A stretch of 63,601 nucleotides of DNA, the filler included, from Ionaspis alba (lineage: Eukaryota), in assembly GCA_964255285.1 (NCBI GenBank). It is 5 parts of 5 records of this genome, joined end to end, with 100 filler letters (N's around TTAATTAATTAA, not from the genome) between each part and the next. Parts side by side here need not be neighbours in the genome. Positions count along the whole stretch, not along the records: positions 12,780 to 25,424 come from CAXUUL010000496.1; 4 more parts are not named here. One strand, given 5' to 3'. The notes below the pieces were generated by a model. That model was not told the DNA's origin and did no database searches. It saw only the letters and a list, made by a program, of their open reading frames with translations. Shown here piece by piece: positions 8,050 to 62,047 of the stretch. Numbering within the stretch: position 1 is the stretch's first letter; every line of letters starts with the position of its first letter. Both the position numbers and the translations under genes were made by a program.

Positions 8050-11000
8050 ATGGAGATGGCCAATTCTTTTTCTGCTCTTCCAGCGCGCCCTCCAACACCA
8101 CCGAAAGATTCCGGCTGGAATAAGAAAGACATCGCAGCAGACACAGCAAGTCCGTTTGCCACNNNNNNNNNNNNNNNNNNNNNNNNNNNNNNNNNNNNNN
8201 NNNNNNNNNNNNNNNNNNNNNNNNNNNNNNNNNNNNNNNNNNNNNNNNNNNNNNNNNNNNNNTGGAATAAGAAAGACATCGCAGCAGACACAGCAAGTCC
8301 GTTTGCCACGTATACACACCCGGCACTTGATACGCCCAACGAGTCTCCAACTTCCTCGGAATATTTCCCACCGTCAGGGAGAGTCTACAAGCGTGTGGAT
8401 TTCATACCACATCTGCCCGGAATCTCGCCATCTTTAGAATCGACTTTGCCCTCATCTGAGAAGCAAAAGATATCCTTGCCGCCCTCAAAAGAATGCAAGC
8501 CATCAAAGTCGATCCTCAAACCCTACAACAGTGCGCTCTTTTCTGATCCTGCCAGCGAATCAGACCAGCACGACCAACCTGATTTCCCCACAATGCTGGA
8601 AGATTGTGTAAGGCAATTGGCCAGTACATCTCAAGGTACAAGGCTAGATGCATACAAGGCGCTCAATGGCTGTCTACAGGCTTACCAAGATCTCCCTGAT
8701 CCACGGTCGATGGAGGAAAAGTTGCCATTGCTTGCAGACTTCGTTCAGCGGGATTTAGAAGGAAAGGGGGTTGCAGAAAAGAACTTCGTTGATACACAAT
8801 TACAAGTCCAGGCCCTGAAGCTGACAGTTATATTCTTGAAGTCTACCAACCTGGCCGAGAAGCTTCAGGATGAATTTCAATCCTTCATCTTGGAACAGGC
8901 CATACGGGGACTGGGAGACTCTACGAGCGCGAAAGTTCTTATAAGTCATTATATGCAGATTCTCTCAAGGCAGAACTTCGGTCCAAAGTCTGTGAACCAT
9001 GATCGAGTCAACCAGCTCCTGACCCTTCTGGGAGATGTCACTACGGTCGTCAAGGGCAATAACGTGGTTGGCCAGAGACTGATGGTTTATCAACGATTGT
9101 TGCAGCAAGCGAAGCCGGTTATGATAGCTCGCGTTAATGACTGGGTGGACCATCTCTACGCTGGCCTGCACAGCAGTCTCAAAGAAATCCGAACCCGTGC
9201 TCTTGACTTTGGATTTGAAGCCAGCCTGACTCTAGGATCTACTAGTCAAATTTCTCGCGCAGTAATCGATCTATTCAACCGACTATCCAACGACGGCCGT
9301 AAAGTTGCCGACTTCCTCAGCTCCCGTCTCAATGAAATGATCGACATCAAGGAGGATATCATGCACGTCCCGCAAATCTGGAGCGTGACAATTCTGTTTC
9401 TCAGAAGTCGGCCAAATCAGCTTGCACGATGGGAACACCTCAATGATTGGATCTCCATCATACAGAGATGTTTCAATGCCAGTGATCGTCAAGTCAAAAC
9501 TCAGGCTTTCCGGGCTTGGAATCACTTCATCTTCACGGTAAATCCGAGCTTGACGACGAGCCCACAATGGTCAAAATCGCTTCAACGGCCTATAATGACC
9601 CAACTTAAAACCAGGTCTGATGGGAAATCTGCAATTATCTCAAGGCAAAGTGCGCAAGCAAGCTATTGCACCTTACTATACTATAGTTTTAGGCCAGGTG
9701 CCACGCATGAAACCTTTGATCGGTTCTGGAAAGAATATGTGACGCCACTGAAGGATCAACCGGACTCAACTTTTGCCTGCCAAGTGATGACATACCTCAT
9801 GGGAGACGGTCCACAAACGACATGGAACTCCAACAGAGGAAACGAAACTTCACCAATGACTCCAGAGGAGCTCCCCCGCCTCGACCCGAGATGGATTCGA
9901 TTACGAGCAAATGTCGTGATCAACCTCTTCGAGCATCTCTGGCGTGTATCGAACTGGTCATCGGTTGATGGCAAGGAAGCGTGGGTCTTGAGAGCATGGA
10001 GAAGTTTCACAAGAGCGCTTGGTGATGCTGGGAGCAAGGAGATAAAGGTATCAGGAGAGAGTATGGCTGCTATGGCGTACATGACGAGCTCCATGAGAGG
10101 GTTATGGATCTCGGCTATCACCGACGGACTTCCCCGGTCTTCCGCTTCCGCCTCCTCCAAGTCATCATACCTTTCTCTGCTTCAGATCGCGGCCCTCAAC
10201 GTCGGATCTTTGCCGTTCACAGAGAAGCGTTTGGTACAAAGCCACAATGGGACATTTGAAGCAGCCGAGACACCGTCAAGCCGGCACGCTCGAGTTCATG
10301 GATCTGTTACATCTGCCATGCTATCTATCTTAGAAATGGTAACTTCATCGACTAACGATCGGGATACCAACAATGAGTTTGTAGATGTTTTGAGAGAGTT
10401 ACTCAGTATCAGTCTTCGTTCTGCTACATCAAGACTGTCAAGGTTGAAGGTGCTGCGAGACATCGTTCCCTTCACATTTTCCGAAACACTCTCTATACCA
10501 AATTCGAAGGTCCTGCTATGGCAGATCATTGCAGATTGTCTATCCGAGGCCATGGACTCCGACAAGCACACGAAAATTGTGCATGATAGCCCACGGCATC
10601 TGGGACAAGACTTCCGAGAAGCAATCAAAATCTTGGATTTCGGCACACGGCAAGATCACGAAGAAAGCATGGCCACCTGGATAAGAACCTTACAGCATAT
10701 TGATTCAAAGGTGCAAGAGGAAGTGGGTATCGGAGGCTCTGTGCTCGCCGTTGTCGAACCGCTTGCGAGCTCGATGCTGCAACGCCAGACAAGTCAATGC
10801 ACCAGTGATGTTCTCCAGCGAGGCACGGCTATCATTCAATGTGCTCGTTGGCCGTCGTCACGAAAGGTCGTGGAGTCGGCTCAACGAGATCTCTGGGGTG
10901 CAGTCACCACAACAACGAAGTCTCCATCGTTTACACCATATGACAAGCTCTACGATCTCGTCGATGAAATCCTTCTCATGGCGTATCGGTATCCCGAAGT

Positions 11001-12679
11001 ACAAACATCACCACATATCATCCACTTCATCCAAGCAGTGACCCGCTTTGTCGATTCTTGTCCTTTGTCGCAATCCGAAATATTACTCAAACGCATACAG
11101 TGTGGACTTGCCATCTGGATAGCAGATGATGACGGCTGGATGGGCTCTCCGAATCCGCATTCTAAGAGGCTCCTCTCTGCAGTGAGTATCTTTCTGAATT
11201 TGGAGATGGTGATACTAATCTTGTCATAGGTAATGGATTTAGCCACAATTGTCGCAAAGACTGTTCAAAATTTGCCCAGCTTCGATAGTAGTCGTCTAGC
11301 GACGCTGGATATCCTCTTTGGTGCTTGTCTCTCGAGTAGGCACAGAATGATGATCAATCAATTCATTCCCTTGTGGAACAGCACCTTTGGTCTAGTAGAT
11401 ACTCTTGAGTATTCGGACACTCTGCGTAAGGTACTGCAGCGCCTCAGTGGATTCACCGAAGTTCTACTGCCTGGTCTTCAGGTCAGGAGAGAAGACATAG
11501 AAGTAAGCATTGTAGTTTGGATGTCAAATGGTCTCGGAACTAATCATGCGTAGGTTGATCCAACGCCTTTCAATTTCATCGAAATTCTAGAGCAAGAGGA
11601 GCCGGCTGATCAAATCAGAAAGGAGCACGAAAGGCCCGGCGTTCATGAGATCGGCTATCCACAAATACTCGCTCGAAATGGTATATCACAAACCGGAGCC
11701 CAACGTTCACCCTACAGAAGCGACGTAAGAACTCCAGACCGAAAGGCGGCACCCAAAGTGAAAACCACTCCGACACCCCGGCTTCGCCATGACGATTCAC
11801 AAATCCAGTTTACTACCATCGAGTCATCGCCTCTGGGCTCGGAAGTAGCAGACTCACAACTTCTTACAGACAGACAGAAAGAGGTGAAAGAGCGTCAAAA
11901 TCAAGAAGCAGCTGCGGTCTTCCCAGATCTGAGAACCAGCCCCAGACCGAAATCACGAGATGTAATGGTCAGATCACCAGGTTCAAACTCCAAGGTGATG
12001 CAGGATCAAGGTGCAGAGGTGCACACGGAAGAGCCAATATCACCAAGTCTCCCACCACAGAATGAGGTGATGGATTCATTCCTGGGTTCTTCTCCAACAC
12101 CTAGATCTGGTGAGAAACGAAACTTTGACAAGGTCCAGAGCGTTCAACTACGCTCGTCATCTCCACTGCCGGAAAAGACTCCCGGAAACGACCGGGTAGA
12201 TGATCCACCCTCATCACCACCAGCGGTTGCCGTACGTAGCTCGCCGATCATGAATGAGCCAAGGACGGGAAATTCGCAAGAGACGACAGGAGTACCCGTT
12301 ACAATGGATACAGAAGGTTCTACTAAATTCATTGGTGACTCCTTTGTCGGTTCTGAAGAGCTAGAGAACATGCTAGATCAGAGCACAAGGTGGGTTTTGG
12401 AGCCAGCACCGGTGGCAGCAGAGGAGCATGATCCTGCAACAGACAAGATATTCTCGGACGACCATTTTTTTAACGCTTTAGACAATCCGCAAATATCCAG
12501 CTTACCTCCAATTGAGCCTCTACAACCACTGGCAAATACTGTGGCTGGAGAGCTGCCGCGTATCGAAAAACTTGAAGAACTACCTGCAACGCAATTGGCG
12601 ATTAATCAGAACATAGAAGCTCAAGTTGTCATTGAGGACCAAGCTACCACTGATAATCAAGATCAGCCTGAGGCGGTAG
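8050..12679 (+). CDS. RIF1: Rap1-interacting factor 1 (telomere length/replication timing regulator), 3' truncated at scaffold end
   Basis: N-terminal RPPTPPK, PP1-docking motifs KRVDF (RVxF) and KSILK, RLDAY at the start of the Rif1_N HEAT region, later RLRHDDSQIQF and a disordered S/P-rich region. Introns near 11182-11229 and 11503-11553. Confidence 0.88.
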
Positions 12680-12779
12680 NNNNNNNNNNNNNNNNNNNNN
12701 NNNNNNNNNNNNNNNNNNNNNNNTTAATTAATTAANNNNNNNNNNNNNNNNNNNNNNNNNNNNNNNNNNNNNNNNNNNN
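12680..12779. other. Artificial scaffold linker
   Basis: N44-TTAATTAATTAA-N44, which puts stops in all six frames. Confidence 0.98.
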
Positions 12780-13087
12780 CAAGCCTGAACAGGTCTTGGC
12801 AGTCTGAGCAAACCTACATGTGAGCAAGCCAACATTGAAGATTGTCACGAATTTGGGACAACTGGCGTTCTAAATTCGGGCCACTCCCGATAATAATATC
12901 GTATCTATATCCTAACTGATCTCACTTGATTTCTGTTTCTAAATCTAGCGTAAAACAGTCTTCTTTTAAAATTGCTCCTTTGACACAACTTCCCAACTCC
13001 TCTATATATCAGTAAGTACTAAAAATCAAAAACACTCAAAAATAAATGAAATGGAGTAAAATTTGAAGGAAAAAAAAGGGGGGGAAT

Positions 13088-13094
13088 AAAAAAA
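13088..13094 (-). terminator. RNA polymerase III oligo-T terminator of the tRNA-Lys gene
   Basis: On the minus strand, AAATC-TTTTTTT immediately follows the discriminator base at 13100. Confidence 0.75.
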
Positions 13095-13099
13095 GATTT

Positions 13100-13217
13100 A
13101 GCCCGATGCGGGAATAACCCGCAACCTTAGGATTAAGAGTCCTACGCTCTACCGATTGCTGGTCCATGTTAGTATGATGATTTTCCAGTACGACTCATAA
13201 CTCACAGCTAACCGGGC
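13100..13217 (-). tRNA. tRNA-Lys(CTT) split by a 47-nt spliceosomal-type intron; T-loop 2 nt short
   Basis: Spliced sequence: GCCCGGT TA GCTC AATCGGTA GAGC G TAGGA CT-CTT-AA TCCTA AGGTT GCGGG TTATT CCCGC ATCGGGC T. All four stems pair (7-bp acceptor with one G-U, 4-bp D, 5-bp anticodon, 5-bp T). Exon 1 is 13217-13206 and exon 2 is 13158-13100. Confidence 0.9.
13159..13205 (-). other. Spliceosomal (U2-type) intron inside the tRNA D-stem, between tRNA positions 12 and 13
   Basis: GTGAGTTATGAGTCGTACTGGAAAATCATCATACTAACATGGACCAG: 5' GTGAGT, branch site TACTAAC, 3' CAG. Boundaries are unambiguous and exact removal restores the D-stem. Confidence 0.88.
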
Positions 13218-13237
13218 CTAATGGACTGACATGTCAC

Positions 13238-13245
13238 TTTATATA
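13238..13245 (-). promoter_or_regulatory. TATA box at -28 of the tRNA-Lys gene
   Basis: TATATAAA on the minus strand begins 28 nt upstream of the mature 5' end (13217). Confidence 0.6.
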
Positions 13246-15072
13246 AAATATATTGAAATTTTATTTTCCCGATCATAAGACTCTTGAGATATCGCAACAT
13301 GGCTGACACCAAGCTATTTGATCTTCTCGGTTTGTTGGCGCATAAGTAGTGCTACTCGCTCAACGCAAGCAAGACTACAAAAATCTAAACGCGCGGAGTC
13401 AGTAATAGAAAGCCGACGGCTAACCATTCCGAATCACACGCCATAAGCGCAGTAGTAATACCCGTAAGCCATGACCCATTTCCTGTTTCCAGCTACCAAT
13501 ATCTATTATAAAACATTCTGGCAAGCACACCCCACGAGCTTCACCTCTTGCAAAACCACCTACACCCTATCTTCATCTCAGTCATAAACATCCTACTCTT
13601 ATCAGGACAAATTTTAGTTAATAAATATGGTTACTGTGTATTCGAAAGCAAACAATCCTAAATCCACTAACAGGGTGGCAGATGTTAGGGTCCAAAAGTC
13701 GGCTTCCATTAGGTTTCGAAAACGCCGAACGGGTTGTTCAAGGCTTGAATTCCTCGAATCGTCAACAGCGGTGCAGCTACGCCCTAAACGAATGACCTGC
13801 CCTTTGCTACGGTAGAGATCGCCGATGAACCTTGCCAGCTAACACTTCTAGCACGGCGATCAAACGCTCAAAGACAATCGAAGAAACGGTAGCCATGGGA
13901 TGAGGAGGAAGGTGACGGCAGGAAAAGGAGCCAACTTGGAAAACGAGAGATGGTCTAATGCGGAAGAAGACGATATCTAACGTTATTGCCTGCGCCCAAG
14001 TATCTGTCGAGATATCTTGATCAAGATAGATAACACAGGTGACGGCGTCGTGCCAGGAGCAGGTTCGGATGCTGTCTAATTGTGCTCAGCCCTGGCCGGC
14101 CCTGTCATTCATTCTGCTGTGCTTGAAACATGTGCCTCGAACATGCCCCTATCGAGCCTCAGACGTCACCGAGCAGAGTCTATGATGTACCAGTTAACGT
14201 ACGGCNNNNNNNNNNNNNNNNNNNNNNNNNNNNNNNNNNNNNNNNNNNNNNNNNNNNNNNNNNNNNNNNNNNNNNNNNNNNNNNNNNNNNNNNNNNNNNN
14301 NNNNNCATCCAAAGGATCGCCAGCTCATGTTGTGACGCTTTTCCCACACCCCTTTATATAGATTCTCTTCCTCGTAAAGCTCCAGCCTCGTGCTGTAAAT
14401 ACCCGCTTCTCCACCAGTATGTATAAACGACATCCCGCACCAATCTAAGCTAATAAGTCTGCGCGACTATGCCCAAAGCCTACGCAGAGAATCTTGCAGT
14501 AGAACCTAAACTCCATCCCTACATAGCGAAATACGCCTGATGCCGAAACCGTGCCAATATACTTGATACGCCGGAGACCATCTCACTGCTCATAATATAT
14601 ACAATCAACTTGTCCCTGTACCACTGCCGTCGGACTCTGCTTGCGCTATCAATTTATCTGCTTGTACAATTACCCCGTCTAATTGTTTACGGTGAGGTGG
14701 TGTAACTTTAGTCTCAAGAACGTTCTTTCATGAGACCAACACACCTGCGAAAAAGGCCGTACAATAGATTCTAAAGGCAATGGCATATTGCAATCTCTGC
14801 AGCTAGTGGAAATCACTATGTTTCAAATCACTATACAGTATCATAGTTGAGATTGTAGACAACTTTCACTAGACTGCAGTTTTAAGTGGCTGCAGGCGAA
14901 AATTGTGAACATGACGTAGAGCCACCCAAATGACTTCCAGTTTGGTGGTCAAAGTATAGAGAAAAACGTTAACAATATAAAGAGAATGTTCACATAACTC
15001 TGTATTTACATTTTAATAGCAGACCAGTCTTTTAGTATGACCAGCAGCAAGCTGTAAGAAAATTGTACTTGC

Positions 15073-17987: not shown

Positions 17988-19664
17988 ATGCACGTGGGAA
18001 TTGTGGGAGCTGGTATTTCTGGCCTGTACACGGCCCTCCTACTACGTCGCGAAGGACATCAAGTCACCATATTTGAGGCTGTAGACCGCGTTGGGGGCCG
18101 AATCTACACCCATCGCTTCTCACCTCAAGCAAAAGGCGACGATGTTTATTTTGAGGCTGGTGCAATGCGAATACCTCGTTCTTCGTTACATACCAAAGTT
18201 TTCGATCTTATCCGCTATCTGAACACGCATTGTTCGGCAGAGGACCAGATTGAGCTGATACCCTATATCCTTGATCACGAAAGCAACCGTTCATTCTTCC
18301 AAAACCAGAAGGGAAGCTTGGAAGAGACGCACTGGGCTGAGAAGGCCGGTCTACCCAAAGAGTATTGGGGTAAGACGCCTCAGTCGCTCCTTGGGACTGT
18401 CGTGCTGCCGTGGCTCGAGCTGCTCCGAAAAGATTTCGACTCTGGATTCCAGAAATTACTGGACTACGACGAGTTCAGCTTCAGAGCCTACCTCCGTCTG
18501 GTAGTTGGATGGCCACATGAAGTGATCGAATTCGTGGAGCTTTTCTGCTCGCAGACGAACCAGTATGATTTAAGCTTCACCGAACTGATCATGCAGAATC
18601 TGGATTTTGACACGAAAGATGTGAGGAGCCTTAATCCCATATACAATCGCGCGTGAAGGCGTATGCTGATGCTTTTTTAGTGGGTGACAGTCAAGTATGG
18701 CATGTCCCGTGTCACTCAGTGCGCAGCTCAGCTTGTAGGGCCCAAGAACATCCGCCTCAATTCGAAGGTCGATCACATCGAATACCTTGACGATGGTCGG
18801 GTCAAGCTTTCGGCCACTGGTCTTCACCAAACCTTTACAGGAGAATTTGATGCCATAGTCTTGGCCACACCTCCATCTGCTGTCCATTCCGTCGTGGAAC
18901 GGCCCAAATGGTCTTTCCTGAAGGAGCAAGCAATCCGTGGTGCTCACTACGAGCCTCTGTATAAGATCGGATTGCATTTCCGCACCCGCTTTTGGGAACG
19001 CACAAGCTTTAATCCTTGCTTCGGAGGCCAGAGCACAACTGATCTGAGGTTTCGTTGGATCGTGTATCCATCGAACGACCTGGGTAGCACCAGTTCGGGC
19101 GTGCTGCTACTCTACAGCTGGATGAGCGATGCCACCAAATGGGCTGGCCTCCCCCGTGACCAGCGCATCCAGGTTTGCCTACACGATCTGAGCTTATACT
19201 ACGCCGACGATCCCGAAGTGGACGTCTACGAACAATACATCGAGGCCTATGATATGCTCTGGACAGCCGAATCAGCGGGTGGTGATGCGATGTTCCTTCC
19301 TGGCCAGTTCTCACGCTTCTACGATATTGCTAAAAAGCGGGAAGGCAACATCCTTTTCGCAGGCGAGCACCTGTCAAAACATCATACCTGGGTGAGTTTC
19401 TACTCTCGAGGCTGACGTCTCAAACTAACGTGCGGTTAGATTGCTGGCGCTATTGACTCTGCTCTGCACACGACTGCTGAACTGCTAGAGCGGCCAGTTC
19501 AAGGGGAAGAGTCCACGAATAAGAGCTCAATACCTCCTCTAGGCCGTGAATTTCTGACCGTCGATGACGCGATACGCGCGGAGCAGACCGATATCAGTTC
19601 GCGTCGGCATAAGGCTTCTATTATCCCAGCGCATATGAACGTTCAATACGTCACCGTATACTAA
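17988..19664 (+). CDS. Flavin-dependent amine/L-amino-acid oxidase, no signal peptide, 3 exons
   Basis: VGIVGAGISGL (GxGxxG), FEAVDRVGGRIYT, EAGAMRIP, ILFAGEHLSKHHTW/IAGAIDSAL. Introns 18621-18680 and 19392-19439; stop TAA at 19662-19664. Confidence 0.92.
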
Positions 19665-33098: not shown

Positions 33099-35838
33099 AT
33101 GGCGAATGCTACGGCCGACTGGGAGAGGATCGGTGACCGCTTCTATAGAAAGGTCAAGCTTTATGATGCTGTTTTCGACCAAGATTTAGAACTCGAGAAT
33201 TATATCATTGCTGGAGCTCCGTACAGTGGTGCCGTTGGTGCGCTGAATCCAAAATTTTGGAAGAATGAAAGCTGTGCTGATCTCTCCAGCCCTTTACCGT
33301 GATGAAGCAAAACTACATGCCTATCGAGGCTCGCAAGCAGCTAAGTCGAGTATCGACGTCTACAGCTGTGCTGGAAAGCTCATCCGGAGAATTAATGTGA
33401 GACTCCTGTATTGAAGTATTGGTTCAGTACTCGTCTCTGATGCTTTCAGTGGGAGAAAGGATCTATACGTGGACTGGGCTGGTCCGAAGATGAAAAACTC
33501 CTTGTGATTACGGAAGATGGCACAGTCCGTTGTTACTATGACCTGCAAGGAGACTTTACCCAATTTTCTCTGGGACATGTGAGCAAGAATTTCGGGGCAA
33601 CATCTTAGTCCTTCTGACTGAAGAAGCGTTAGGGTGCAGAAGAGCTTGGTGTGAAGGCTTGCCGTTTCTGGTCAACAGGATTTGTTGCATTGTTGTCCAA
33701 TAATCATCTTATAGCCGTTACTCAGTACATCGAACCACGACCTAAACTATTGGCCATACCGCCAGAGGAGACAGTACACTCTTGGAGTCTAATCCCTCCA
33801 GCGTACACCCTGTCGCGATCGGTTGAAGTGCTCCTTGCCATCGGTCAGACCATATTTGTGGTGGACACCTCGGAATCCGAAGACAGGATTTTGCAGAATG
33901 GTCCATTCAAGCACATCAGTGTCTCTCCAAACGGAAGCTTTGTCACTCTGTATACAGAAGACGGCAAGGTTTGGGTAATCAGCAGTGACTTTCAGAACAA
34001 ACTCAGCGAGTACGATTCGAAGGCCAAAACTTTACCTAAGGATGTCCAGTGGTGTGGGAACAACTCTGTTGTACTAGCATGGGAAGATGAGGTTCACATG
34101 GTTGGACCAAACGGCGCTGCTCTCAAGTGAGCTGCTGGTTCCGCCCTTGCGGAACTTGCTGACACCATCGCAGGTATTTCTATGATGGTTGGGTACATCT
34201 ATTAGCAGATATCGATGGCGTTCGATTGATCACCAACGATGTTTGTGAATTCTTGCAGAAGGTCCCTGGTAGGCTTTTCATGCTACTGCTAAGACAAGTA
34301 CAAAGATTGACTGCTTTACAGAGGATACGGAAGAAATCTTCAAGCTCGGTTCTACCGCTCCAGCTTCCGTATTATTGGATGCAGTGGACCAGCTGGAGAA
34401 GAAGTCACCAAAAGCAGATGACAATATCCAACTAATACGTCCAAATCTGGACGAAGCGATTGACATGTGTGTTCGAGCTGCAGGTCAAGAATATAGCACA
34501 CACTGGCAAAAGCGGCTTCTCAAAGCAGCATCCTTCGGCAAATCAGTGCTCGATCTTTATAATAGTGACGAGTTTGTCAATATGTGCGAGACTCTGAGAG
34601 TGCTCAATGCTATTCGAGATTATCGAATCGGACTCCCGATGTCATATGAGCAGTATCTACGCCTCACACCCGCAAAGCTCATCCAAAGACTCCTGAATCG
34701 CCGAGAATATCTCTTAGCTATTCGAGTGTCCGAATACCTCCATCTCTCCACAGACAAGATCTACGTCCACTGGGCCTCCCAAAAAGTTCGCACTTCTTCT
34801 GCCGACGAAGACAGCATCTGCAACACGGTCGTAAACAAACTAGCTGGTAAACATGGTATTTCTTTCGAAGCTATCGCTCGCTCTGCATACGACGAAGGCC
34901 GGGGTCACCTCGCCACGCAACTCCTCAACCACGAACCCCGCGCTGGAAAACAAGTCCCGTTGCTACTGTCTATGGAGGAAGATAGTATTGCACTAGACAA
35001 GGCAATAGAGAGTGGAGATACCGATCTCGTCTTCTTTGTCCTCCTACAACTCAAGGCTAAACTTCCTCTGGCATCCTTCTTCCGCCTTCTCAGCACACGC
35101 CCTCTCGCGTCTTCCCTTGTCGAGTCCTCCGCAGCGGCTAATGATACTACTCTTCTCAAAGACCTCTACTACCAGGACGATCGTCTCGTCCCTTCCTCGA
35201 ATCTTCTTTTCGCATCCGCTCTGACCCAACCTACTCTACCACAGAAGATCGACAAGCTGAAGCTCGCTGGAAAAATGCTCTCCGAGTCCAAAGACCCAAA
35301 CGCAACGTTTCACCAGAAAGCCATTCAGGAAATTCAACAGTTACTTCGTGTTCAGGAAGCTCTGTCGAGAGACCTCGACTCTTCATATGTTGGCCTTAGC
35401 CTGTATACCACACTCCACACTCTCATCCGAACCGGCTACAGCAAGCGTGCCACTAAGCTGCAATCCGATTTCCACCTCTCAGACAAATCCTTTGGCTGGA
35501 TCCGATTGCGCGCACTCGTTGCAGCACGCAACTGGGGTGAGCTGGAAGAACTCTCCAAAGCACGTAAGAGTGCTATTGGCTGGGAGCCTTATTTCAATGA
35601 GGTTCTGGGCGCGGGAAATACAAAACTTGCAGGAGCATTCGTGGCTAAGTGTACAGCGATGACGGCGCAGGAGCGGAGCGAAATGTGGGTCAAGTGTGGA
35701 ATGGTGGAGAGGGGAGGAGATGAGCTGGTGAAAGTAAAGGATTTGAATGGGTTGGAGGAGTTAAGGGCGAAGACTAGCGATCGGGCGGCACAGGTGGAGC
35801 TGGATAGGATGATCAGAGGATTGAAACCAAAGAGATGA
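33099..35838 (+). CDS. VPS16: Vacuolar protein sorting protein 16 (HOPS/CORVET), multi-exon
   Basis: MANATADWERIGDRFYRK, GAPYSGA, WCGNNSVVLAW, AASFGKS, LRVLNAIR, LDKAIESGDTDL, KSAIGWEPYF. Confidence 0.96.
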
Positions 35839-38261: not shown

Positions 38262-41028
38262 CCGTCATAGTACTATTCCCCACGACCACCACGCCCCCCG
38301 GACCAATCGCAACCGGCGTCCCAGAAATCGTCGCCGTAGACCCCACCCCCACCGTCGTCCCCGCAATCGCGATTCCAGACGGTCCAACAGTCAGCGTCTT
38401 CCCACCCAGCGTAACGACCTGCGACGAGAAGGGCGCAGAAGCAGCCGTAGGCGCAACCACAAGACTCCCAGCCGGATTGACGGAATACACACTCCCCGAA
38501 GCCGTGACAGCCTGCCCTCCAGCCGTAGCAGTCGTGCCCGCGACCACGACCTGTGAGGCAGAAGGCACGGCGAAGGTCTGGCTGCCGATGATGATGGAAC
38601 TGCCCGTGGTGCCTACAGCGGTGGGGAGCGCGATGGTCATGGCTGGGGCGGGGGTAATGAGCGCGTTGGCTCCGGATCCGCTTCCAGATCCGCTTTTACT
38701 TGTTGCAGCCACGATTAGGCTTCCGGCCGTATTGACCGAGTACACGGTCCCCGATGCTGTGGCAGCTTGGCCACCTGCGGAAATGGTGGAGCCTCCGACG
38801 ATGACTTGGGAGGCGGAAGGGACGGAGAGGGTTAGGCTGCCGATGACTATTGAGCCGGGGGTATTGGCGACCGGTGTTGGTATCGCGATGGTGGTGGATG
38901 CAGCGGCTGGAGCAGCGGCAGGAGCAGGAGCAGGAGCATTAGCGGTTGGTGCTACTACGACAAGACTTCCGGCTGTGTTGACGGAGTACGTGGTTCCTGC
39001 TGCTGTTGCAGCTTGCCCACCAGCTGATAAGGTGGCGCCTGCGACCACGACTTGAGAGGGGAATGGCACAGCCAGTGTTTGGCTTCCTACCACGACAGCA
39101 GCGGGGACATTTGGCGCTGCTGCAGGAAGCGCAAAGGTTGCGACTGGTGCTGGAGGTACATTGGCGGGATTATTGCCCGCATTACCTGCGGTTGGGGCAA
39201 CGACAAGATTTCCAGCTGTGTTGACAACGAAGGCTTCGCCACTGATTGTTATTGCTGGTCCTCCGGCTTGGATTGTCGAGCCGGCGGCTACGACTACGGA
39301 GGGTGATAGTACTTGGAGTGTTTGGCCGCCCGCGACGATGATTGCTGGATCGTTGTTGGAGGGGTTTGGATGTGGAAGCGCGATTGTTGTTGGAGACGCT
39401 GGTGCTGGAGCTGGTGCAGGGTTAGTATTGGCAGGTGGGTTCCCTCCGAAAGCACTGTTAATGATGCTTCCAATCGCTGGTGAGCCTGCGGCAGGTGTGA
39501 CAGGGTCCACCGGCTTGGGTGATGGTGCCGCATTCGTAGGATTTTGTCCGGTTCCTGGATCGGCAGCGGCAGGTGGAGCGGAAGCAGGATTTGGTGGATT
39601 AGGTGTAGCGGGTGCAGGCGCAGGCGCAGGCGCAGGTGAAGGGTTGGGGTCGACTGGATTGTTCTTGCCAGGGTCTGATACTGGAGTTGGTGGTGCGTCT
39701 GGTACCATTGCAGTGGCCGTAGAAGGCGCAAATATCGTTGGCGAGCTTCCGGGTCCCGCTGGCGTGGTCTCTGGTAGTGGTGGCGCAGCTGTGGTGGACG
39801 CTCCTCCACTAGGGGAGGGAACGAGCTGGCTCTGCGCTTTCAGAGCTTTTGGAGGATCGAACAGAGGCCAGAAACTCGTGGTACAGCTTGTCCATTCTGA
39901 AGCTAGTGATAACATCTCCGTGGGGAATCCAATCCATGGTTTACAGGGATCCCAGAGCTCGGTTATGACAGTTCCAGTAGGTGCCCACTCACGCGTGATG
40001 GTAGCGATGGCTGTCATGCGCTCTGAGCTCGGAAAGAAATCGACTGGTAAAGTGTCATTCGAAGTGCGATTTGTCGGAGGACACGACGTGTAGTCGGAGA
40101 CCTTGAAAGGATACCAATTCGCAATTCTGGGGATTCCTGTGAAATGTGCACGGTCATATCCGGGATTTTCCACAGATATGAAACGAGCTGTAGATAGTCC
40201 TTCAACTCGGACAGGAAAGGTTGTCGTGATGACAGGTCCTATTGTCTTATGGCAGAAATCCGAGGCAATCATGTTCTTGATTGCGAAGTACATGGAAGGA
40301 GATGTACTGGAGAGGTAACTGTCAGAAATATTTCACATCTGAGAGTTGGGCAGACTTACAATGTGTATCCTTCAGAGTTCGTGACCGTTGTCGCAGCATC
40401 CGGTGCAGCGGTCGTCGGCCAGTAGAAGACCTCTAGAGGACTGGTGAAAGCCACATTCTGCGCAAATATTCCTCCTTCCAAAGGTCCCACGGTACATACA
40501 CCACAGCATGGTGAAGCGGAAGGGGTAGGAAGCGTATACCAGCAAGTCGGAGTATTAAAAAGAGTGCTGGTGAAGGTATGCTCGCCACTAAGTGCAGTAC
40601 CTAGATCTGGCTCCTTCCCTACATAATAGCTTAGGGCTGGCCATAGCGATGTTGGAATTGTCTTCGTTATTGTTTCTGTAGTTGAAGCATATGAAGGACA
40701 TCTGGACCATTCGCTTGACCAGGCTGATATCATCGAACTGACACAGTAACTATAATCGCTGGCAGGCTGCTTGTAAAACATCGTTGCGGGATCCCATATT
40801 GAACCCTCGCTACTGGGAAGGCCGACTGAAGTTGGAACTAGTTGGGCAAAGTCAGACTCATTCAAGGTGAGGGCTTTTAGGGATAGCTCTATACTGACTT
40901 GTTACGGGACCTGAAGAGATCGTGGTATTCGCAGTGCTATTCGAGAAAGAAAGAGCATAAGACGACGACGCCAAAAACAAGACATAATGAAATATGAAAA
41001 GAATGATTTGCTGCATGGTGACCGCCAT
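38262..41028 (-). CDS. Secreted Pro/Ala/Thr/Ser-rich repeat protein (adhesin/mucin-like), 3' truncated
   Basis: Signal peptide (MAVTMQQIILFIFHYVLFLASSSYA), Cys-containing N-terminal region (SPCCGVCTV, VFYWPT, FDPPKAL), PA-rich linker, tandem V/G/T-rich repeats. Introns near 40912-40865 and 40358-40313. Confidence 0.8.
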
Positions 41029-60909: not shown

Positions 60910-62047
60910 AGGGGTGTCAAGGCGGTTTCCTCTCAAACGTGACGAGGAGAGGGATCGTGCATATCGTTTGGGGATTACGGCAAGTCTGCGACTTTTGCTT
61001 TGACTCTTTGATTGATTTTGGCACAGATCTGATTGGGCGGCGATTACCCGTAACTGTAAACGCGGGGCGTTAAGTTAAGGATGGCTAATTACTGTATTCT
61101 TCGTGTATATACCCCAATTGAGTTGATATTCTTATGCTTGGCATATATGTTCGGCATTTCATTCTAGTGATATCTTCCCCTTCGCGTAGGTAACTATGAA
61201 GGAAATGAGAAATCTCTAAACGCCTTTGTACCTTACTTTCGGTCGCCAATATGACCGAACAGTCCATAGTCTGACCACTGCGTTCAGGTAGGATAGGCGG
61301 TTGAATAGAACGATCGTAATTTGGTTGAAGAAGAGCAATTCGAAAATGCATGAGAAGTTCCTGATTACATGATCGGCCGCTAAAGGTACTAGATTCTAGG
61401 CGGAAAAGTTCGAAATTCTGAATTGGCTTTTGTCTTTCCTCAAAATCTGTAAGCGCAGATGCTGGCAAGATATCTTACAGACGTCACCAGCATTGTAATG
61501 CAGTTGCTGAGATTCGGGTCTTCAAGCTCCGAAAAAAATGATGATCATGCCTGTGATCACCAATTGATCCAGGCGTCTATGCCGTATATCCCTTCCAATC
61601 TCTGTATAAATCCAAGTTTTCAATACACTTCCCCAGCACTATTCTAGCACACTACAATACCCACGGCTTTGCCTACCTCCTGCGCCTCTTTCCGTGGTCT
61701 TGGGGCATACTTTTTACTAGCCAGTGGGAGAAAAGAACAGGTACTTAGCAGGACCGCGTCTTCTCCACCCTACCGCTTCTTTGCTCTTTGTGGAGCGGTG
61801 GGACTACATAATGGACGGACATATCGTTATTTCTACCTCAAAGAGCCTGCAAGCTGGTTTTGGGACCAATTGCATCTATCTACCTCGTTTTGATGTCATA
61901 AAGAGATTGTGTATCGAGTGGAAGCTTATTCTAGTTTGGACCTTATTTGTGCTACTCCTGCTGCTATTCACCTCTTGCCCCAATCACCCTTTACCGTCCA
62001 GCTCGTCGCGGCTCTGCCACCTTTTGGGTTCCCCTCGAAAGTCTGTA

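Follow-up and report, generated by a model that had tools for sequence, protein, structure and literature searches.

The window, by which we mean the whole stretch of 63,601 nucleotides of Ionaspis alba DNA that was analysed, carries on its minus strand a tRNA-Lys(CTT) gene whose two exons are separated by a short insert with the signals of an mRNA intron (Table 1). The sequence is as the original prediction had described it, with the D-stem of the tRNA split by the segment 13159-13205. In this gene, as in the related tRNA-Lys genes presented below, the 12/13 intron lies inside both the D-stem and the A box. Because different letters stand at its two edges, the window insert has borders that cannot slide. 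The branch A predicted from the TACTAAC motif stands 10 nt from the 3' end of the intron, and the CAG acceptor is the first AG past it.

Table 1. Features of the split tRNA-Lys locus, candidate mRNA introns of the window, and related loci from metagenomes. Locations are window positions or, for L002 to L004, positions in the respective locus.
Feature	Location	Strand	Description
tRNA-Lys exon 1	13206-13217	minus	12 nt (tRNA nt 1-12): 5' strand of the acceptor, nt 8-9 and D-stem bases one to three
Spliceosomal-type intron	13159-13205	minus	47 nt, between tRNA nt 12 and 13
5' splice site GTGAGT	13200-13205	minus	Start of the 47-nt insert
Branch motif TACTAAC	13168-13174	minus	Predicted branch A at 13169
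3' splice site CAG	13159-13161	minus	End of the 47-nt insert
tRNA-Lys exon 2	13100-13158	minus	59 nt: last D-stem base to discriminator
Anticodon CTT	13135-13137	minus	In exon 2 of the window tRNA-Lys
Aberrant 5-nt T-loop TTATT	13113-13117	minus	2 nt short, without C56/R57
TATA-like element	13239-13245	minus	Starts 28 nt upstream of tRNA nt 1
T7 run, Pol III terminator type	13088-13094	minus	6 nt past the discriminator
T8 run	13070-13077	minus	Follows the T7 run
Upstream block	13284-13301	minus	67-84 nt upstream; 17/18 identical to L003 (about 1640-1660)
Candidate mRNA intron	11182-11229		48 nt, bridges open frames
Candidate mRNA intron	11503-11553		51 nt, bridges open frames
Candidate mRNA intron	19392-19439		48 nt, GTGAGT, AACTAAC, TAG; example given in the original prediction, bridges two open frames
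Candidate mRNA intron	34127-34173		47 nt, bridges open frames
Candidate mRNA intron	40307-40359		53 nt, bridges open frames
L001			Anticodon CTT; one intron, 47 nt; ARAGORN call after one excision
L002	1494-1611		Anticodon TTT; one intron, 45 nt; ARAGORN call after one excision
L003	1406-1574	minus	Anticodon CTT; introns of 49 nt (nt 12/13) and 47 nt (nt 55/56)
L004	1392-1512		Anticodon TTT; one intron, 48 nt; ARAGORN call after one excision

ARAGORN reports 0 tRNA genes in the intact window and none in the unspliced stretch. Once exactly 13159-13205 is removed, the same program calls tRNA-Lys(ctt) under all four of four option sets, and the spliced window copy is drawn as a cloverleaf with 7/4/5/5-bp stems and a Lys anticodon. 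At the gathering score, Rfam likewise returns no tRNA match in the window; in sensitive mode, the Rfam tRNA model RF00005 aligns to exon 2 only (13108-13160) with 23.6 bits, under the cut-off of 29. Exon 2 of three of the related genes (L001, L002 and L004) scores 30.5-32.8 bits with the Rfam tRNA model. The expectation that standard finders would miss genes of this kind was thus borne out, ARAGORN and Rfam having missed all five.

As a chance control, every GTRNGT...YAG segment of 35-200 nt on both strands was excised and the product submitted to ARAGORN. A tRNA formed across the junction for 1 of the 731 splice-signal segments of the window, and that segment is 13159-13205; among random excisions, 1/37,454 gave an odd ARAGORN call. 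An in-silico excision scan of the kind proposed in the original prediction, run over the window, picked out this single segment, and a pattern scan of metagenomes found four more genes. No other interrupted or partial tRNAs were seen in the window, nor, besides the Lys genes, in L001-L004. Some ARAGORN output was set aside: L004 produced three additional rows on its other strand, which merely mirror the one excision, and one tRNA-Thr with a 797-nt intron, called on the raw loci, was judged spurious.

Candidate mRNA introns of the window were defined as segments whose excision joins two long open frames. These ORF-bridging candidates are 47-70 nt long, with a branch-to-acceptor distance of 9-16 nt, donors of the forms GTGAGT, GTAAGT, GTGAGC or GTAAGC, and branch motifs of the form CTRAY. 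The tRNA insert is indistinguishable from them in length, donor, branch motif and branch-acceptor distance. The resemblance to mRNA introns of the window, first pointed out with 19392-19439 as the example, accordingly extends in size and signals to the ORF-bridging candidates, that example included. In terms of its sequence, the insert bears every mark of a U2-type spliceosomal intron.

Kinesin, Vps16, PEX11 and Mug190-like genes show the window to be fungal in its gene content. The closest named relatives of its Vps16 are those of Xylographa bjoerkii (79%) and of Flavoplaca, Xanthoria, Blastenia and Caloplaca (66-69%), the latter being Teloschistales lichens. Vps16 similarity points to a lichen-forming Lecanoromycete as the host, a placement at class level. 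The downstream neighbour of the tRNA gene is convergent with it, and on the upstream side the closest ORFs of the same strand are ~1.9 kb away; no same-strand ORF adjoins the tRNA locus in the window. The convergent gene is interrupted at its end by two N runs, 320-420 nt downstream of the tRNA. Altogether, the window has fourteen N runs of 44 or 100 bases (e.g., 1429-1528, 8163-8262, 12680-12779 and 14206-14305), and those of 44 bases come in pairs, 12 bases apart. We also note a weak match to snR92, a fission yeast H/ACA snoRNA family, at window positions 61707-61824 on the plus strand (30.6 bits, cut-off 80, E 0.037).

For the metagenome scan, we used a pattern that fixes only the D-arm letters flanking the insert, GTNNGT and AG. 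Four loci matched (L001-L004), all of which become tRNA-Lys after excision, and the same pattern matched nowhere in the viral contigs or in prokaryote genomes totalling 596 billion bases. Since the pattern demanded GT..GT and AG, the scan is silent on the frequency of other inserts at the 12/13 site. The hidden class that had been predicted thus gained four more tRNA-Lys genes with an intron at the same position, one of them with two introns. The comparisons that follow involve five genes only, of which L001, L002 and L004 are close relatives, and L001-L004 all come from metagenome contigs.

In all five genes, the first intron lies at the same site, between nt 12 and 13. The GTGAGT donor is shared by the window gene and 4/4 relatives, and the GA at intron positions 3-4 was found in 5/5 genes though the pattern did not demand it. 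Equally undemanded, ACTAAC is present in 5/5 first introns, its branch A 10-12 nt from the acceptor. The acceptor is the first AG at a usable distance in 5/5 genes; four of the six introns end in AAG, not YAG. AAG is the rarer acceptor in fungi, a point against the spliceosomal reading.

L003 carries a second intron in its T-loop, reading GTAAGT...TACTAAT...TAG, with the TACTAAT 10 nt from the acceptor. Only once both introns are removed does L003 become a textbook tRNA-Lys(CTT) with a 7-nt T-loop. The second intron was not sought by the pattern and, therefore, testifies independently to mRNA-type introns residing in these genes. L003 and the window have in common an alignable upstream flank of ~87 nt, which makes L003 probably an orthologue, or else a close paralogue, of the window locus in a related fungus. 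When the loci were compared with the window by tblastx and blastn, only the tRNA and this L003 flank matched. Among the flank ORFs of L001-L004, 1 of 32 had a Pfam match, to a C2H2 zinc finger, and a homologue search with that ORF returned only itself.

The tRNA bodies of L002 and L004, both with anticodon TTT, are 91-93% identical to the L001 CTT gene when the pattern-fixed columns are excluded, which suggests an anticodon switch within the intron-bearing family. Conserved blocks flank the tRNA in these loci: L001:560-760 and L002:1770-1960 lie downstream of it and contain an ATG on the tRNA strand, and L001:2020-2200, L002:1330-1470 and L004:1200-1400 lie upstream. The conserved blocks make the tRNA locus syntenic among L001, L002 and L004.

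We aligned the five genes (window and L001-L004) and counted the cloverleaf pairs that span the introns. Pairing is kept in 104 of 105 pair cells, and 5 of the 21 pairs have changed on both sides, that is, in a compensatory manner. None of 500 shuffles reached the observed pairing or covariation score, and controls with slid partners were 35-57% paired. The four D-stem pairs are fixed by the search pattern and count as no evidence; the other 17 pairs are independent of it, and there 84/85 cells are paired, the sole miss being a C-A in L002. The window and L003 have different bases at pair 29-41, and so do L001 and L002/L004. The pair therefore varies within both subgroups, and compensation happened repeatedly. 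Exon 1 of the window copy is invariant or compensated throughout the alignment.

Exon columns that are not fixed by the pattern are 71-96% identical, and the intron interiors are 26-58% identical, with a value of ~27% for the window against each relative, which is near random. The original prediction that orthologous loci would keep the splice signals as the interior diverged agrees with what the relatives display, GTGAGT and ACTAAC being invariant in introns with such interiors. Such a pattern is what one would predict for exons obliged to fold into a tRNA and an intron that the spliceosome has to recognise, and it is hard to reconcile with a dead gene.

The window copy itself departs from its relatives in the T-loop. 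All of its stems are otherwise perfect, and the splice signals, the TATA-like element and the T run are intact. The ARAGORN drawing gives the T-loop five bases; in the Rfam alignment, the two bases deleted are those that would align to C56 and R57. A 7-nt T-loop with T54-T55-C56, absent in the window copy, is present in 4/4 relatives after excision. In the tRNA elbow, C56 is the pairing partner of G19, and it is also the key base of the B-box promoter; with C56 missing, the window copy is without a contiguous B box, in addition to its split A box. The TTATT T-loop, put forward earlier as a diagnostic tag for transcripts of this locus, is rather a defect, and a 5-nt loop with neither C56 nor a contiguous B box means that the window copy may not yield a working tRNA. 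We give roughly even odds to this copy being a paralogue in decay that functions poorly, as opposed to a tRNA gene in working order.

The short T-loop sits where L003 has its second intron. An origin through imprecise loss of a T-loop intron was considered and rejected, no single deletion turning one form into the other, and the overlap with the L003 intron site is for this reason left as a coincidence that calls for an explanation. A 433-nt contig of run X1 resembles exon 2 (window 13116-13158), with 5 differences in 43 nt. The contig contains tRNA-like 5' and 3' parts, does not contain the 47-nt insert and has a 7-nt T-loop; judged from these parts, it may represent an uninterrupted paralogue whose acceptor stem would have one mismatch.

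Flanked by a TATA-like element upstream and a T run downstream, these genes look like Pol III units of the kind that have an upstream TATA, fission-yeast U6 being an example. All four relatives have a TATA-like element, at -35 to -39, and T7-T17 runs 4-14 nt downstream. Judged by consensus sequences, the A box is split in 5/5 genes; L001, L002 and L004 have a contiguous B box, which the window and L003 genes lack. In these latter two, whose A and B boxes are both broken, it is therefore doubtful that Pol III transcription is driven by TFIIIC in the standard way. Around the 18-nt upstream block shared by these two genes, the flank is otherwise about half identical; the block may be an external promoter element, a possibility that two sequences are too few to establish. 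A search by eye for a B-box-like element within the intron, as in fission-yeast U6, gave nothing convincing.

We take Pol III to be the most likely polymerase, with assistance from the B box in those genes that keep it intact, and Pol II to be the alternative. Two points count against a spliceosomal route: a Pol III transcript would have neither a cap nor the Pol II tail, both of which ordinarily assist the assembly of spliceosomes, and the 5' exon consists of just 12 nt plus leader. It had also been stated that the intron has no T4 run that would stop Pol III. That statement stands for the window, where the longest T run in the intron is 2, and fails for L002 and L004, whose introns contain a T5 run that could stop Pol III.

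In sum, we consider that the locus belongs to a conserved nuclear tRNA-Lys family of lichen-forming and related fungi with a true U2-type intron at 12/13, a reading to which we give a probability of about 0.7 on the sequences at hand. Under this reading, the gene would be transcribed from its upstream TATA-like element as far as the T run that lies downstream. U1 would pair with GUGAGU, and branch-point factors and U2 would recognise UACUAAC, U2 by pairing. The first AG, 10 nt downstream of the branch, would serve as the acceptor, and exon ligation would restore the 4-bp D-stem. End trimming and CCA addition would then give the tRNA. We are only a little above even in our confidence in a broader proposal, namely that in lichen-forming fungi and their relatives spliceosomal introns have spread into tRNA genes in addition to rDNA, that the supply of tRNA-Lys (CUU; UUU in one lineage) has thereby become spliceosome-dependent, and that the window and L003 genes are driven from an upstream promoter, made up of the TATA-like element and the 13284-13301 block, possibly by Pol II.

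The window copy, or indeed the whole family, could instead be a dead relic, a tRNA pseudogene with an intron-like insert from which no tRNA is made. Several properties of the window copy would fit such a relic, namely the 5-nt T-loop without C56, the lack of any contiguous A or B box and the Rfam score under the cut-off, as would the uninterrupted paralogue with a 7-nt T-loop suggested by the X1 contig in the same run. Against this stand the otherwise perfect stems of the window copy with its intact splice signals, TATA-like element and T run, and, for the family, the near-complete retention of pairing with repeated compensation, combined with invariant signals and near-random interiors. We therefore regard a relic as unlikely, though a possibility of some weight. 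It is improbable that the 47 nt are the intron of an overlapping Pol II transcript, either an mRNA UTR or a long non-coding RNA, and that the likeness to a tRNA is incidental: the borders restore a full cloverleaf exactly in 5/5 genes, with compensated stems, a T run follows 4-14 nt past the discriminator in 5/5, and in the window the downstream neighbour is convergent, with no adjoining same-strand ORF. Such a transcript would account for the perfect Pol II-type splice signals, the upstream TATA-like element and the split Pol III boxes, and it would fit the conserved downstream block of L001 and L002, which has an ATG on the strand of the tRNA.

A further alternative, an ectopic intron of the tRNA type that the tRNA-splicing endonuclease cuts and a ligase seals, as in Cyanidioschyzon merolae and nucleomorphs, would have the merit of precedent, as D-arm and T-loop introns interrupting the A and B boxes are on record in these (PMC3978253, PMC3728597). 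The fungal enzyme, however, measures from the mature domain to 37/38 (PMC3728597). The conserved bulge-helix-bulge motif is moreover absent. A search for it at the intron borders found no central helix in 4/6 introns, and only weak A-U/G-U helices with 0-1 outer pairs in the other two of the six, so that the endonuclease route is not supported by geometry. GTGAGT and ACTAAC are, in addition, invariant in introns that have otherwise diverged, and an endonuclease needs neither; we hold this route to be very improbable. An assembly or sequencing artefact, finally, has a negligible probability and nothing was found in its favour. A 1318-nt contig of run X1, possibly the source data of the window, spans 12888-14205 with 1 difference, a depth of ~83 and no joint, and four independent metagenome contigs carry the same gene structure; contigs of run X2 gave no cover over the tRNA gene.

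The reading as a true U2-type intron bears on how tRNA splicing is described. Pre-tRNA splicing is carried out by an endonuclease and a ligase, unlike pre-mRNA splicing (PMC10275265, 2023). In a review of tRNA introns (PMC4090602), the stem 'spliceosom' has 0 occurrences, and one of disrupted tRNA genes (PMC3978253) mentions no spliceosomal introns in tRNA genes. The non-mRNA hosts of spliceosomal introns named in a U6 review (PMC5855946) are U1, U2, U5, U6 and rRNA, with no tRNA among them, and tRNA goes unmentioned (0 occurrences) in PMC8527467. Our literature search, which had most subscription journals outside its reach, found no report of spliceosomal introns in tRNA genes. tRNA genes, as represented by these five sequences, are thus a probable new host class for spliceosomal introns.

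If true, the family would represent a third route of tRNA splicing beside the endonuclease-ligase pathway and self-splicing organellar introns, and would extend the non-mRNA intron hosts, until now snRNAs and lichen rRNA, to a third major RNA class. A tRNA family in need of the spliceosome would also break the rule of a 37/38 intron removed by endonuclease and ligase that is found in textbooks and reviews (PMC10275265). If real, these genes would further offer a natural test of the spliceosome on Pol III transcripts, or else a tRNA from a Pol II gene, and would make the tRNA supply of slow-growing lichen fungi depend on how much splicing they can perform, a link already argued for their rDNA introns (PMC8527467). 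The failure of ARAGORN and Rfam on five genes would, given a real family, expose a blind spot in tRNA annotation. Intron-bearing tRNA genes are invisible to the finders, and published fungal tRNA sets may consequently miss members.

Ectopic spliceosomal introns in the rDNA of lichen-forming ascomycetes were reportedly described by Bhattacharya et al. in 2000. Lichen mycobionts splice out these ectopic rDNA introns, which are spliceosomal, and a 57-bp rDNA intron of Cladonia grayi is spliced from Pol I transcripts even in yeast (PMC8527467). Like the introns described here, the lichen rDNA introns have a lichen-fungus host, are short and carry mRNA-type signals (Armaleo and Chiou 2021, PMC8527467), and they too sit in a gene that is not transcribed by Pol II (PMC8527467). 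They differ in that the host here is tRNA rather than rRNA, the intron splits an internal promoter, and its removal is a prediction.

mRNA-type introns are also found in fission yeast U6 (Tani and Ohshima 1989) and in U1, U2 and U5 of Rhodotorula hasegawae (PMC5855946). As in those fungal snRNA genes, a spliceosomal-type intron here resides in a small non-coding RNA gene, and fission-yeast U6, a Pol III product, shares with the present genes an upstream TATA and a T-run terminator. The snRNAs, however, are in or close to the spliceosome's active site, which explains a gain by reverse splicing, and tRNA is not.

Ectopic and multiple tRNA introns occur in nucleomorphs. Cyanidioschyzon merolae resembles the present case in having D-arm and T-loop introns, multiple introns per gene and interrupted A and B boxes, and in being missed by finders (PMC3728597, PMC3978253). 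The introns of Cyanidioschyzon merolae and of nucleomorphs, in contrast, have the bulge-helix-bulge and no GT-AG or branch signals, and here the reverse holds. Similarly to the canonical 37/38 intron, which the Sen endonuclease and a ligase remove (PMC10275265, PMC4090602), the insert described here interrupts a nuclear tRNA gene and needs precise removal, but it lies at 12/13 (and also at 55/56 in L003) and has spliceosomal signals.
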